Positions 3,713 through 44,489 of a DNA stretch of 64,000 nucleotides are shown one piece after another. The stretch lies in the NCBI RefSeq assembly GCF_030013595.1, contig NZ_CP122772.1; one strand, 5' to 3'. This DNA comes from Escherichia coli (lineage in GTDB: Bacteria > Pseudomonadota > Gammaproteobacteria > Enterobacterales > Enterobacteriaceae). Each line of letters starts with the position of its first letter. The first letter of the stretch is position 1. Both the position numbers and the translations under genes were made by a program. The notes under the pieces are model-generated. The model ran no database searches. It was not told the origin of the DNA and saw only the letters and a list, made by a program, of their open reading frames with translations.

Positions 3713-4389
3713 AACGAGTAATGGTATCGCTGGCCCTGCTTCTGGTCAGCGGGGGCGGCATGGCGAATAATCATACGGAGAACCGTCAGTTTATCCATGA
3801 GCAGCTGCAACTGGACCGTCAGCGATTTCAGTCTCTGCAAACCCCGGAATTCCTGAAACAGACCCGTCCGGTGGCACCGCAGGAGCAGTCGTTTCTCGAC
3901 GCGCAGGCACAGCAGTTCCGGCAATCCATGCAGCCCGGGGAACGCCCGGTGAATGCGGCCCTGGTGTTTGTGTCCTTCTCGATGCCGGCGGAGGAGTTGA
4001 AGCAGCGTGTAAAGGATGCGGCACAACTCAATATTCCGGTGGTTATCCGGGGAATGGTTAACGGCGATATGCGGGCGACGGCTAATGCCGTTGCCGGTCT
4101 TGTGAAAGAGAGCAATACCGGTGGGGTACAGATAGATCCGACGACGTTTCGTAAATACAACATTACCGCCGTGCCGGTGCTGGTTGTAGCCTGTGGTAAT
4201 CAGGGTGAGAAAGTCGATCGTCTGCAGGGGGATCTTACGCTGCATCAGGCCCTGAAGCGGGTGGCAGAAGAGGGCGACTGTGCTGACACCGCCAGGAGCC
4301 TGCTTGGCGAGGGGGGGAATGAAACGATACATTCCTTTACTGATGCTGGCGGTATCTTTCTGCCTGGTACAACCGCTTGTTGCAAATGA
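3709..4389 (+). CDS. trbC: TrbC-like periplasmic transfer protein
   Basis: ATG at 3709 giving an N-terminal signal peptide (MKRVMVSLALLLVSGGGMA); position between traU and traN. The 3' end overlaps the likely traN start by ~70 bp, so the exact stop is uncertain. Confidence 0.7.
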   Translation: MKRVMVSLALLLVSGGGMANNHTENRQFIHEQLQLDRQRFQSLQTPEFLKQTRPVAPQEQSFLDAQAQQFRQSMQPGERPVNAALVFVSFSMPAEELKQRVKDAAQLNIPVVIRGMVNGDMRATANAVAGLVKESNTGGVQIDPTTFRKYNITAVPVLVVACGNQGEKVDRLQGDLTLHQALKRVAEEGDCADTARSLLGEGGNETIHSFTDAGGIFLPGTTACCK

Positions 4390-6157
4390 GCAGTTTAACC
4401 AGGGAATGAATCTGAGTAGCCAGAATAAGGGACAGGGGGCCAGTGCCATTCAGGGGTTTAATCCTGCGGAGGTCATCCCGGGTTATACCAACTCCCCTCC
4501 TGAAAGCGGGTATTACGGTGGCGTGACCTCCTCTGGCGTCGATATGACCGCCCCGGGTTCAGCAGCGCTGAACACATCTGAAGCGGGTAAAATAATCACG
4601 GAGTCCATTCTCAATACGCCGCCGGATAACAAGCCGTCGCTGGATGCACCATTTATTTCTGAAGGGCTGGCCATGAAGGACAAGGCCGAGACCATTACTG
4701 GTGGAGGGTTTGCCGGCTGCGTGGACCAGCCTGCCAGTTTTACCGAAACCACCACGCATCAGTGCTTGCGTGATCCGAAGATAGAGCAATACTGCACGCG
4801 AACCGCGACAATCACAGGCCACTATGAGGATACGACAGAAATCAAACAGATAGTGATTGAATCTTCCTCGATTCGGTTCACTGAAAAGAACAATTCTTTT
4901 TCTGGTGAATTTAAGGTCAGCACTGGAGGGAAAGTGATCGCTGCCAGCGCGGTTTACTCCTGGAATAAGAAACTTGCTTACGGCAACGATCACTGGTTCA
5001 TGAGAGTGACCACGCCATTTGGTTTAATTTCAATGGATGATTCTGAGGGGAGCGTCACGCTGAGTTCCGGGCTGAATATAACAGATGGGCAGTCATTGCC
5101 GTTTTCCATAACGAATAGACGCAACAAACCTACAGTGTCTTCCATCTGGTATAGCTCAAATATGAAGTACCGTTTCACCATTACGCTGACGATTCAGGTT
5201 CCTTCCAGAAAATGGGTACCTGAGGTTGTCTGGACAGAAAGCTGCCCGTTCAGCAAGTCTGAAGGTGCAATGACCGGATCTCAGTGTGTAGAGCCAGGAG
5301 GCACCCGGACCGTCGTTGTTGACGGAAAAACCTACAGCATCCACCAGGACTGCTGGAAGTGGCAGGACACATATCTGACACAGACCGAAACTGAGGGAAC
5401 CTGCGGTGAGTATATGAAGAACCCTGCCTGTACGGTTGTACGAAGTCAGTGTGCCGATACGGTGGATGGTTTTTGTGTCAGCCAGCAGGTCACCTACTCC
5501 TGTGAGCGTAAAAAAGAGGGAAACGGCCAGATTTGCGGCGGGGAGTTCTTCTGCAAAGACGGCAGTTGTGCCCAGGCGCAGACAGGGACCAGCAATATGT
5601 TTGGTCAGGCAGTGTCAGCGCTGGCGGCAGTGGCTGCTGCCGGAGAGGATGTGGCGGAACTGAACGGCGAGAATGTCAGGGCATTCACTGGCGAAGCCAA
5701 ATCCTGCAAGAAGTTTGCTGCCGGGTTTAACAATTGCTGTAAGGATTCTGGCTGGGGCCAGGATATCGGGCTGTCCAGTTGCAGCAGTGATGAAAAGGCA
5801 CTGGGTAAGGCTAAAGAGAAAAAACTGACGGTCTATGTAGGGGAATACTGCAGCAAAAAAGTGCTGGGGGTATGTCTGGAGAAGAAACGCGGTTACTGCG
5901 TATTTGACTCCAAACTGGCACGCATTGTCCAGGAGCAGGGACGCCGTGGCCAGCTGGGCATTGGTTTCGGCAGTGGCAAATCTCCGGACTGTCGGGGCAT
6001 CACAGTGGATGAACTGCAGAAGCTGGACTTTGGCGTGATGAACTTCAGCGATTTCTATGATGATCTTAATGCCGGTAGCGATATCCCGGAAGACCAGGCC
6101 TTGCTGAAGAAAGCACAGGACATTATCGCTGAAAAGATGAAGGAGAATGCGCCATGA
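4319..6157 (+). CDS. traN: TraN outer-membrane mating-pair stabilisation protein
   Basis: Signal peptide starting at MKRYIPLLMLAVSF (ATG 4319), large cysteine-rich protein (~612 aa), F order. Confidence 0.85.
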   Translation: MKRYIPLLMLAVSFCLVQPLVANEQFNQGMNLSSQNKGQGASAIQGFNPAEVIPGYTNSPPESGYYGGVTSSGVDMTAPGSAALNTSEAGKIITESILNTPPDNKPSLDAPFISEGLAMKDKAETITGGGFAGCVDQPASFTETTTHQCLRDPKIEQYCTRTATITGHYEDTTEIKQIVIESSSIRFTEKNNSFSGEFKVSTGGKVIAASAVYSWNKKLAYGNDHWFMRVTTPFGLISMDDSEGSVTLSSGLNITDGQSLPFSITNRRNKPTVSSIWYSSNMKYRFTITLTIQVPSRKWVPEVVWTESCPFSKSEGAMTGSQCVEPGGTRTVVVDGKTYSIHQDCWKWQDTYLTQTETEGTCGEYMKNPACTVVRSQCADTVDGFCVSQQVTYSCERKKEGNGQICGGEFFCKDGSCAQAQTGTSNMFGQAVSALAAVAAAGEDVAELNGENVRAFTGEAKSCKKFAAGFNNCCKDSGWGQDIGLSSCSSDEKALGKAKEKKLTVYVGEYCSKKVLGVCLEKKRGYCVFDSKLARIVQEQGRRGQLGIGFGSGKSPDCRGITVDELQKLDFGVMNFSDFYDDLNAGSDIPEDQALLKKAQDIIAEKMKENAP

Positions 6158-29200: not shown

Positions 29201-29622
29201 ATAACTACCTGAAAGACAATGACATTATCTTTTTTTATAACGGTAATTCCAGACCATGACAAGCCGCAGCCGCCAGGCTGCCTACTCGATTCTCTCGTAG
29301 AATGTGTCGTCTGGCTGAACGAAAAAACCGCCTTGGTGGGCGGTTTTTCAAAGGTTTATGGAGTTGGCGCTCGTTGAACCGAGGTAACTGGCTTGGAGGA
29401 GCGCAGCCTCCAAAATAACCTGAATGTCCAAATGGGACAGAGATTATGTAACTGAGGGATTTACTAGCGTTGTTAGAAAGGTGGCTTATCAGGAGATCTA
29501 TAAAAATGCAAAAGCCCAGTTTTTCAACTGGGCTTCGCGGTCCCTCAAGGGGAGAAAATCTGAATGGCCTCTATGGGCTACACAGCTAGTTTAACAAATC
29601 AGTAGGTTGTGTCAACAGTAAA

Positions 29623-30096: not shown

Positions 30097-30885
30097 ATCA
30101 GAGCCTTCAGATAGTCAAAGAATAGAACATAGATTACTACACAGGAAAGGCTATGCGCTACATGGCGTATATAATTCTATGATCATGAGGAAGCAGCTCC
30201 TCACCAGGACAGAAAATGCTGTATGTCCAGTCAACCGAAGAATTATAATGGCAACCATGATCATCACAGGAAGAACGAGTAACAGATGGTAACTGCGTGG
30301 GTGGATGTGGCTGATAATGCCGTAAAAATAGGTTTGGGGTCGTTGTTGACTATTTTAGGGGGGGCTGACTCTTAAGCTAACACAAAAGCACGAATTAAAA
30401 AAAGAAGCGGCAGTACAGGGATTAAAAGATAAAGAAATAAGTCAGGTTTAGCCATAAGGAAAGCAGCATTTAAACTCCAGTTTGATGTTTCTACTTTCAT
30501 TTTCTACAACAAAATACACGACACAGAACTCATTAATGCACTGAGGGATAAGGCTAGAAATTCTGTTTCCATGTTTCAGGCCATTGTGAATGAGGAAATC
30601 TGCAACGGAAAGTTTGGCACAGCAAGCCAGTAGCGCAGGACAGAATAACCTGTATGTCAGGTGATGCAGGAAATCTTATTCAAATTATCTGGTGCGGTCG
30701 CAGCTGATAAAGGCGTTGGCCAACGCGCTCGATACAAAGCCGGCGTTTAGATGATTGGTTATTTTACAGTGAGTTATGTCATTTCTGCCGAGGAGAATAT
30801 TGGTGAGTTTTTTTGAAAAATATCACAGTACGTTAAAGGGCAGGAAGCGGTTCACTTCCTGCCCTTAGTTACGTTTCCGCTGTCA

Positions 30886-30981
30886 TCAGTCGATGAACTG
30901 GCGAATCAGTTCCAGAATTGCAATCAGCGCGTTCGCAACGGCGACTACAGCCCTGAGAACGATGATTAACAGATTAATCAT
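30886..30981 (-). CDS. DinQ-like small hydrophobic type I toxin candidate (31 aa: MINLLIIVLRAVVAVANALIAILELIRQFID)
   Basis: Short ORF with GGAG RBS 6 nt upstream, single predicted TM helix, hairpin plus T-run immediately downstream on the minus strand; paralog at 43621..43704. Confidence 0.4.
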   Translation of the reverse strand: MINLLIIVLRAVVAVANALIAILELIRQFID

Positions 30982-31291
30982 CCGTTTCTCCAGTAAAACT
31001 GGAGGAAATCACCGTTGCTTACTCATACACTGCCTGTCACAACGGCTCTCTCGCATTGTTAGGTGTAGAGTGACCTCCTCCTGCCAGAGCACCGAATACA
31101 GCACCACCTGTTTATCCAGCCAGGACTTTAAAATCGTTCATACCCGCAGATACGGGAAGAGCAGGATTACAAGCCAACTACATGACTAACTGACTGATTA
31201 TACGCTACACAAAACACCCGTTACACAACTAAATGTGGTTCCTTAACCACATTTAGTTGCTTTACAGCACCATAGTGAATAAAATGTAAAC

Positions 31292-31380
31292 GTTAGGTGT
31301 AGAGTAACCTTCTCCGGTCAGAGCCACCAACTCAAGGCCGGAAAGCACAAAAAAGCCCGATTACCAGTCGGGCTTTTTTG
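31292..31380 (+). ncRNA. Conserved two-hairpin RNA module A (stem-loop plus bidirectional terminator); sRNA or 3' terminator cassette
   Basis: tccgg/ccgga stem with conserved loop (cagagccaccaactcaag) followed by terminator aaaaaagcccgattaccagtcgggctttttt; related copies at 31950..32018 and 43801..43870 with compensatory stem changes. Confidence 0.4.
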
Positions 31381-31433
31381 TACCTGTCATTCAACTGAAC
31401 TAATCTCAATAAAGATGCATCCAAGAGAGATTT

Positions 31434-31865
31434 TTATTTGGATTCGACGTTAATATCTACACAGAGGAATTTGTATTCAGGATTGTTTATTTCAAAATGT
31501 ACTTTATGCTCACCATCAGGAAATAGATTTGGATTACGTTTACCAATTGAACGAATTATTTCGTTAACTTTTTCCTTAATAAGATCGCGTGATAAATCCT
31601 CATTAAAATCTTCTTTTTTTATTCCCGGAATTATTTCCTTATAAAAATCTTTGATTATTTCCCCTCCTATATTTACTTCATAATCAAAAGATATCTGTAG
31701 AGGTCCAGACATGGTTAGTGTTTTCTTCATTGTTGTCTCTCCCGTGTTGAAATCTAATCCTTGCACTGTACAGTGCAATACATCTAAAGCCCGTACATTA
31801 TTAGGCTTTAGATGTATCAAAGTTATTTTACTAGATAATTGATTTTTATCAACCATGCCCAACAA
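31434..31865 (-). CDS. hypothetical protein (start uncertain; possibly the internal MKKTLTMSGPLQ... start)
   Basis: AT-rich ORF ending just upstream of RNA module A, which would serve as its terminator. Confidence 0.4.
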   Translation of the reverse strand: MLGMVDKNQLSSKITLIHLKPNNVRALDVLHCTVQGLDFNTGETTMKKTLTMSGPLQISFDYEVNIGGEIIKDFYKEIIPGIKKEDFNEDLSRDLIKEKVNEIIRSIGKRNPNLFPDGEHKVHFEINNPEYKFLCVDINVESK

Positions 31866-31949
31866 ACATTCAAAGTATAACCAGATAAGCTGGCTTTTGA
31901 CATAGCCAACTATCTGACTTACTATATAAACGCTGGATATTGAGATTCA

Positions 31950-32018
31950 TTCTCCGGTCAGACAATCAACTCAGAACCGGAAAGCAAAAAGCCCGATTAT
32001 CAGTCGGGCTTTTTTTTG
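31950..32018 (+). ncRNA. Conserved two-hairpin RNA module B
   Basis: tccggt...accgga stem with conserved loop core (caatcaactcag) plus terminator aaaaagcccgattatcagtcgggcttttttt. Confidence 0.4.
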
Positions 32019-43620: not shown

Positions 43621-43704
43621 TCAGCCCATCAACTGGAGAAGGTAGCGAATCAGTTCAAGAAGTGAGATTAGTGCCCCCAGAACGATGATTGCTTTATCAA
43701 TCAT
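43621..43704 (-). CDS. DinQ-like small type I toxin candidate (27 aa: MIDKAIIVLGALISLLELIRYLLQLMG)
   Basis: Closely resembles my recollection of E. coli DinQ; hairpin plus T-run downstream on the minus strand; 5' leader region shared with the paralog at 30886..30981. Confidence 0.5.
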   Translation of the reverse strand: MIDKAIIVLGALISLLELIRYLLQLMG

Positions 43705-43800
43705 CCGTTTACTCCATTATATGGAGCAGACTCCCGATACTTACTCTTACACTGCCTGTCATATCGGTTGTTCTTCGGTGTTGGTTGAAGACAGTTCCAC

Positions 43801-43870
43801 TCCAGCCAGAGCCACCAACTCAGGGCTGGAAAACACAAAAAAGCCCGATTACCCGTCGGTTTTTTTTTGT
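43801..43870 (+). ncRNA. Conserved two-hairpin RNA module C
   Basis: ccagcc...ggctgg stem with the same loop core as module A (cagagccaccaactcag) and a degenerate terminator. Confidence 0.35.
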
Positions 43871-44489
43871 GCCTGTCGTTTGGCTGTACTTCCGTTTTTT
43901 CCCCTTCATTTGAGGGATTTTTCTTTCATTTTTTGTTGCAGTCAATACCGCTGATCGCGTTGGCCAACAGAACGATGCCGTTACCGGCATTATCATGAAT
44001 CCCATTTTTTCAGTAAGTTGCAGCATACAAAGTAATTAAAAAAACGTCATTTTTTGTTGATGGATGCAGTAGCGGTGGTGTGCTACGTGAAATCTGGGAA
44101 ATGCTGGCGGGTAAGTGACTCAATTTTTAATCTCCGCACCTGTTTTTTTGGACGTGCCAGCAATTATGACCTGAAGCAGAGGTGCGTCCGACAACAAAAA
44201 TTCCGATCACCAGAAAAAATTTTGGACATTTTTTCCGATAATGCATTTTTGTCCAGGGGGATATGAACTACAGGGCAGGGCGAAAAGGAAGCGGTTATCT
44301 TGATCGATAGGAATTTAAATCCCAAAAAGATTAAAAAAACACCCAAAAACGGATGTTTATTCGACACTGCCTGCGTGCCATGAGTGCACCGCCATCAATT
44401 AAATGGATCTTATCGAGTGATACTGTATATCACTGATGGTTTTTTACTCCATTCCCCTGAAAATGGACGCAACTTCCCCGATGCGGCTC

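Follow-up and report, generated by a model that had tools for sequence, protein, structure and literature searches.

The segment at positions 30886-31380, from a mosaic E. coli plasmid related to IncX1, is very probably a complete dqlB/agrB module, a member of the DinQ-like family of type I toxin-antitoxin systems. We refer to the whole stretch of DNA analysed, 64,000 nt in length, as the window. The family membership of both genes, the sequence parts of the module, the complementarity between sRNA and leader and its co-variation across loci are direct observations. The module is of a kind already known, being DqlB/AgrB by every sequence criterion tested: dql genes on natural plasmids were described, and the family named, in 2016 (Kristiansen et al., PMC5066626), and the function of DqlB/agrB in plasmid addiction was validated in 2025 (PMC12365149, PMC12317039). 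The novelty seen in the original prediction, which took DinQ-type toxins to be known from the chromosome and not as a duplicated plasmid module, is thus superseded by the plasmid dql genes known since 2016, and PGAP already labels the locus dqlB. The only findings that are mildly new are a recurrent, repeat-mediated disarming deletion and an orphan AgrB gene, both described below. The module, which we call copy 1, and its immediate surroundings contain the following features.

30836-30866, minus strand: presumed terminator, a stem-loop that ends the dqlB mRNA (12-bp inverted repeat and fold)
30886-30981, minus strand: dqlB coding sequence, 31-aa hydrophobic toxin MINLLIIVLRAVVAVANALIAILELIRQFID (ORF list and NCBIfam NF041473)
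30988-31004, minus strand: Shine-Dalgarno (SD) hairpin, elements 3:4, CUCCAGU-UUU-ACUGGAG, hiding the GGAG at 30988-30991
31019-31045, minus strand: conserved 5'UTR block, …GUGACAGGCAGUGUAUGAGUAA…, common to copy 2 and chromosomal dinQ
31058-31092, minus strand: AgrB target site in the dqlB 5'UTR, with element 2 GGCAGGAGGAGG; a direct repeat of the AgrB 5' end
31148-31182, minus strand: region of element 1 (predicted), close to where the primary transcript begins and, by prediction, able to pair with element 2
31190-31202, minus strand: predicted dqlB promoter, -10 TATAAT at 31197-31202 and start near 31190; invariant across loci and aligned with the dinQ +1
31226-31259, no strand: perfect 15+4+15 palindrome CAACTAAATGTGGTT/AACCACATTTAGTTG between the divergent dqlB and AgrB-1 promoters
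31257-31285, plus strand: predicted AgrB-1 promoter, TTGCTT, 17 nt, TAAAAT, read by eye
31293-31380, plus strand: AgrB-1 antitoxin sRNA (Rfam RF02891), with a 5' recognition arm that is single-stranded, a stem-loop inside and a terminator at 31347-31381

The toxin gene is the 31-codon minus-strand ORF at 30886-30981, present at exactly the coordinates predicted for it. Its peptide matches the NCBIfam model of the DinQ-like type I toxin DqlB (NF041473) over profile positions 1-31 of 31, at 72.4 bits against a cut-off of 35 (E = 1.9e-20), so calling it a type I toxin resembling DinQ was right in kind. On the model of DinQ itself (NF041472) it reaches 25.1 bits and, because this is below the cut-off of 30 and no LexA box accompanies the gene, the toxin is not DinQ proper. 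Hydrophobicity (GRAVY 1.88 for the 31-aa peptide and 2.68 for its top 19-aa window) is consistent with one transmembrane helix, in agreement with the prediction, and the expected GGAG ribosome-binding site lies at 30988-30991 on the minus strand, 6 nt ahead of the ATG. A hairpin followed by a T-run had also been proposed. The hairpin is there, at 30836-30866 (12-14 bp, -27.7 kcal/mol, z = -6.1); the T-run is weak because three U's alone come after it, the toxin strand continuing UUUAAC. This hairpin aligns with the 3' hairpin of dinQ, and the chromosomal gene ends likewise. Many plasmids of E. coli and Klebsiella contain DNA identical to 30700-31500, and on them PGAP labels the 31-codon ORF dqlB (WP_000609147.1).

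Across 12 homologs, variable columns of the dqlB ORF are distributed 10/2/20 over the three codon positions, and pairwise codon differences in the ORF comprise 572 synonymous versus 306 non-synonymous changes. Variation mostly at third codon positions shows a pattern indicative of purifying selection across relatives. The same comparison bears on a rival reading in which the real gene is a 98-aa ORF at 30893-31189 on the plus strand and the 31-codon ORF is incidental. An uninterrupted plus-strand frame of 98 codons does exist there, but this antisense frame is broken in most homologs, its longest open stretch being 44-70 codons in 7 of 12 loci, whereas the 31-codon frame is always intact, varies at third positions and matches a curated family model. 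We consider this reading almost certainly wrong and rejected the 98-aa ORF as a real gene, its frame not being conserved among homologs.

The dqlB 5'UTR is strongly conserved among loci and homologous to the dinQ leader. Its SD is enclosed in a 7-bp hairpin (z = -3.2 for the local fold of 30988-31004) and stays paired, at P(unpaired) = 0.00, in every fold of the full-length and truncated leader; this hairpin matches hairpin 3:4 of the dinQ model (PMC5066626). The block at 31019-31045 has 3 mismatches in 27 nt to 43741-43767, against a chance expectation of 0, and the leader said to be common to the 27-aa paralog is therefore real (24/27 nt match), with coordinates 1-2 nt away from those first given. 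Within the leader, a GACAGGC block is invariant in a 16-locus alignment. Alternative leader pairings are predicted at -23.6 (1:2), -22.6 (2:3) and -11.6 (3:4) kcal/mol, and cognate combinations of leader elements are modestly more stable than non-cognate ones across the 16 loci; the 1:2 duplexes, for example, average -25.6 versus -20.8 kcal/mol. Minimum-free-energy folds of 5'-truncated leaders kept the SD closed and so did not reproduce the opening expected of a dinQ +1/+44-type switch. As truncated-leader folds never opened the SD, the processing switch of dqlB rests on homology. The TATAAT at 31197-31202 sits 7 nt before the predicted start near 31190, which would give a 209-nt leader; a consensus promoter scan reported no dqlB promoter, the -35 being poor.

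The antitoxin gene accounts for two repeats that had been noted upstream of the ORF. The box GTTAGGTGTAGAGTRACCT has exactly two matches, at 31058 and 31292 (chance expectation 0), as predicted, and extends into a 33-nt direct repeat of 88% identity. These repeats are not generic upstream boxes; they are the 5' end of AgrB and its target in the dqlB 5'UTR, the box at 31292 being assigned to the AgrB 5' end because the RF02891 match spans 31293-31380. An Rfam scan of the window returned three AgrB-family antisense RNAs (RF02891), all on the plus strand. AgrB-1 is a full-length match (model positions 1-84) at 64.0 bits against a gathering score of 40, its end coincides with the right border of the 30886-31380 interval, and it folds at -38.4 kcal/mol (z = -6.6).

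The predicted duplex between AgrB-1 and the leader comprises 33 bp at -57.3 kcal/mol, with three internal mismatches to its own target. In a duplex scan, the site at 31058-31092, about 77-111 nt upstream of the dqlB ATG, was the sole strong AgrB-1 target in the 64-kb window besides the AgrB genes. Corresponding energies are -62.3 kcal/mol for chromosomal agrB, -46.8 for its weaker chromosomal paralog and -65.8 for the pOXA-48 type, and the AgrB of one relative (L003) is predicted to bind the window target slightly better than the cognate AgrB-1 does (-63.9 versus -57.3 kcal/mol). The putative AgrB-1 promoter fell below threshold in the consensus scan, its -35 being weak; a like layout (TTGCAA/TTGCAT, 17 nt, TAnnAT) is found upstream of the chromosomal and L016 AgrB genes. 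The palindrome at 31226-31259 could be an operator or insulator. It touches the AgrB -35 and is kept in L003, and is not shared by all members, other dqlB loci having different inverted repeats at this place.

We compared the module with 14 diverse plasmid loci (IncX1, X3, X5, HI2, I/K/Z, N and L/M) and one chromosomal dinQ locus. Its architecture is that of the intact loci L003-L016 and of the validated pOXA-48 type, and in all loci compared the AgrB target is found some 75-113 nt upstream of the start codon. The agrB site in dinQ (G88-A119) occupies the same position (PMC5066626). The recognition sequence of AgrB differs by locus, and sRNA and target change together across 13 loci, in which cognate duplexes average -57.1 kcal/mol versus -39.4 for non-cognate ones. 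In the joint alignment of target and sRNA arm from these 13 loci, 93% of cells are paired and 17 of 32 pairs have changed on both sides; none of 500 shuffles reached the observed covariation score, and sliding the partner by one column lowered pairing to about 42-46%. Gene conversion, through which the two direct repeats would evolve in concert, could add to this signal. With or without it, the AgrB/target complementarity is maintained. For the IncL/M and IncN loci, an Rfam AgrB search gave no match at E <= 0.1, and there we located the sRNA via the direct repeat. One IncX1 plasmid (L005, NZ_CP058842.1, 720-1872) carries two tandem AgrB/dqlB modules, one of them with a 27-aa shortened DqlB variant, MMNLLIIVLRAVLAIANALIAIQKLIE, and a weaker cognate duplex of -47 kcal/mol; module duplication on a plasmid is therefore not unique to the window.

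The closest known systems are the plasmid DqlB/agrB modules. The 31-aa DqlB of pOXA-48 (IncL) is identical to the window peptide at 25 of 31 positions, and that of the IncX3 plasmid pHNYX647-1, which is not the tested pOXA-484, at 29 of 31. These modules likewise have a divergent AgrB sRNA, with complementarity of about 33 nt here versus 35 nt in pOXA-48 (PMC12365149), as well as a conserved leader, an SD held in a hairpin, a plasmid location and no LexA box visible at the promoter. Recognition sequences are allele-specific, and predicted cross-duplexes with other dqlB/agrB alleles are much weaker. In IncX plasmids, the family is present at a frequency of about 53% (PMC12365149).

The chromosomal dinQ-agrAB locus, in the arsR-gor intergenic region of E. 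coli, has the same gene order and a divergent sRNA of the same Rfam family, and the target-to-start-codon distance, the leader with elements 1-4, the SD hairpin and the 3' hairpin are alike by homology. It differs in that DinQ has 27 aa and belongs to another NCBIfam model, global alignment of DqlB and DinQ peptides requiring gaps; in its GTG start codon, where dqlB has ATG; in a LexA box over the promoter, which dqlB lacks; and in having two tandem agr genes, whereas the window module has one. On the E. coli chromosomal locus examined here (L002), two AgrB-family genes lie at 368-451 and 599-682. The one farther from dinQ has the better complementarity to the dinQ leader (31/34, -62.3 kcal/mol, versus 25/34, -46.8 kcal/mol, for the other), and we therefore take it to be the functional agrB.

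Other type I systems resemble dqlB/agrB in logic. In tisB/istR-1, zorO/orzO and shoB/ohsC, the primary transcript of a small hydrophobic toxin gene is translationally inert, and the sRNA pairs at a site well upstream of the SD. Some of these family properties are listed in PMC5397157. A divergent, non-overlapping sRNA and a long 5'UTR target are common to these systems and dqlB/agrB, but their toxins and sRNAs have no homology to it and belong to different Rfam and NCBIfam families. The only sequence link seen to these systems consists of sub-threshold OrzO-P Rfam matches that overlap some AgrB homologs. The hok/sok system of R1 enforces addiction by post-segregational killing, with a processing-activated toxin mRNA and an antisense RNA that is unstable. 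In cis, Sok overlaps hok/mok, and it works via the mok reading frame; activation occurs by 3' processing. Its addiction logic is like that of dqlB/agrB, but the two are not homologous. It served as the comparison module in the pOXA-484 study (PMC12317039).

These likenesses suggest how the window module may work. Transcription of dqlB on the minus strand would begin near 31190 from the TATAAT promoter and produce a 209-nt leader followed by the reading frame of the 31-aa membrane toxin. With the SD held in its local hairpin, the primary transcript would be poorly translated; by homology to dinQ, 5' processing would free element 2 to pair with element 3, opening the SD. AgrB-1, transcribed divergently, would pair through about 33 nt of its unstructured 5' arm at 31058-31092, covering element 2, which would keep the SD hairpin closed and probably trigger cleavage by RNase III. 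After plasmid loss, AgrB RNA would presumably decay faster than the toxin mRNA, and toxin would then be made, leading to post-segregational killing. In the published dinQ model, the primary transcript is inert, 5' processing allows 2:3 pairing and opens the SD, and AgrB bound over element 2 recloses it and directs RNase III cleavage (PMC5066626).

From the homologs we infer that, in the window module, DqlB is toxic and neutralised by AgrB, that the transcript is processed and cut by RNase III, and that the plasmid is stabilised. DqlB of pOXA-48 is toxic and rescued by agrB, and destruction of that plasmid kills cells unless agrB is supplied (PMC12365149). Toxicity and its neutralisation by agrB were likewise shown for the IncX3 pOXA-484 locus, which made a test plasmid more stable when cloned in pCONn (PMC12317039); silencing of agrB by CRISPRi is strongly deleterious (PMC12361523). 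Constitutive expression with control at the RNA level fits an addiction role.

A different role would follow if the toxin were SOS-inducible like dinQ, repressed by LexA and acting in the response to DNA damage and not in plasmid addiction, a reading that we judge very improbable. The dqlB family is homologous to the LexA-regulated dinQ, and a CTG-N10-CAG site, ACCTGTTTATCCAGCCAGGA, the only one in the vicinity, lies in the dqlB leader at 31106-31125; its homolog on pTF2 has been predicted to be a LexA site with a heterology index of 11.64 (PMC12211044). Against this, the site scores only 12/20 and falls on a conserved RNA stem, some 66-85 nt downstream of the predicted start. The original prediction had named LexA boxes as something to look for upstream; a CTG-N10-CAG and consensus scan found none near 31190-31240, at or near the dqlB promoter, whereas the same script finds the chromosomal dinQ box, used as positive control, at 15/20. 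DqlB was undetected in an SOS proteome study (PMC12211044), and homologs act as addiction modules without DNA damage (PMC12365149, PMC12317039). In that pTF2 study, no change in DqlB protein is visible (PMC12211044).

The module at 30886-31380 has a relative elsewhere in the window, which we call copy 2.

43621-43868: copy 2, a DinQ-type toxin ORF (43621-43704) joined to the 3' portion of an AgrB gene, with the junction at about 43806-43813

Its 27-codon peptide scores 55.5 bits on NF041472 (cut-off 30) and so belongs to the DinQ family proper, and the copy lies in the IncX1 backbone, adjoining a resolvase gene. Relative to the intact IncX1 loci L016, L023 and L024, it lacks about 235 nt, precisely the stretch that the AgrB and target repeats enclose. 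Lost with this deletion, which arose by recombination between the two repeats, are both promoters and the initial ~100 nt of the leader; the 3' part of AgrB is left joined to the target. A promoter scan found none for AgrB-2, and the sole candidate for a toxin promoter is a weak minus-strand site at 43917-43945, with the AgrB terminator hairpin in between. Having lost its promoters, copy 2 is therefore most likely a disarmed relic, though RefSeq still labels it dinQ. The view of a duplicated module has to be abandoned for this pair, since copy 2 is not an equivalent duplicate: it is DinQ proper (NF041472), with both promoters deleted.

The fused form is common in plasmids, and IncX1 plasmids include both it and the intact form. 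The repeat retained is of the target type in the window copy and L020 and of the AgrB type in L021 and L022. Retention of different repeats implies different crossover points, and the deletion is therefore recurrent, having occurred at least twice in IncX1 plasmids. L022 has in addition lost 1 nt from the SD hairpin, and its codon 2 is changed.

Given such relics, copy 1 might itself be an inactive, unexpressed remnant like copy 2, left over from a repeated or mobile segment. The window does hold decayed relatives, namely the promoterless, fused copy 2 and a toxin-less AgrB gene; the segment is flanked by IS elements, and the promoter scan was silent at copy 1. However, copy 1 has the TATAAT, the full leader, target, SD hairpin, intact ORF and terminator, and AgrB-1 has a promoter-like site and a terminator of its own. 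The purifying-selection pattern of the ORF, the co-variation of AgrB and target, and a layout the same as that of intact loci and the validated pOXA-48 type likewise argue for an intact module, leaving the remnant reading a very slim chance.

The toxin-less gene is the third AgrB-family member of the window.

31933-32017 (31897-32017 with its promoter), plus strand: AgrB-3, orphan AgrB-family sRNA gene (Rfam RF02891, 56 bits), with the 5' arm CUGGAUAUUGAGAUUCAUUCUCC

AgrB-3 has a near-consensus promoter (TTGACA-17-TACTAT), a terminator and a fold with z = -3.7, and it has no toxin ORF. The ~25 nt directly downstream of it look like the beginning of a dql leader; an unrelated ORF follows, and pEC4115 has the same arrangement. 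A duplex scan of the whole window and 17 dql/dinQ leaders found no AgrB-3 target above background: the best non-paralog hit, at 4386-4424, has -36 kcal/mol (tile mean -24.7, sd 5.0), and the downstream ORF region has -23.7 kcal/mol. The ORF that follows AgrB-3, at 31434-31760 on the minus strand (MKKTLTMSGPLQISF…), is annotated as a 140-aa hypothetical protein and has 98 aa in pEC4115; an 18-nt perfect palindrome, TTGCACTGTACAGTGCAA, precedes it at 31761-31778. This ORF may be driven by a former dql toxin promoter.

Three states of one module family occur in the window: copy 1 is intact, copy 2 is disarmed and AgrB-3 lacks a toxin. One speculative and, taken as a whole, rather unlikely reading combines two proposals. 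First, the direct repeats around both promoters, formed by the AgrB 5' arm and its target, would provide a built-in route for safe disarming in one step, a proposal supported by the at least two independent crossover classes in IncX1 plasmids. Second, AgrB-3, which has kept a near-consensus promoter and is also conserved in pEC4115, would persist because it acts in trans, serving either as an anti-addiction antitoxin to dql toxins from competing plasmids or in the regulation of another target.

The DqlB/AgrB addiction module is widespread on resistance and virulence plasmids and often unannotated, and recognising it explains part of plasmid stability. For plasmid curing, the example of pOXA-48 means that the antitoxin RNA must be supplied to avoid killing. 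The findings in the window leave the current understanding of the family unchanged; their practical value is one of annotation, separating the intact module from a disarmed relic of DinQ type, which databases still label as a toxin gene, and from an orphan antitoxin gene.

Three other regulatory antisense RNAs were found in the window.

22593-22759, minus strand: AS-pc02 (58 bits)
24693-24783, minus strand: CopA-like RNA, IncFII-type replicon (89 bits)
29319-29418, minus strand: ColE1-type RNAI (73 bits)

Together with several IS91 copies and the IncX1 maintenance region, these RNAs point to a mosaic, multi-replicon plasmid.
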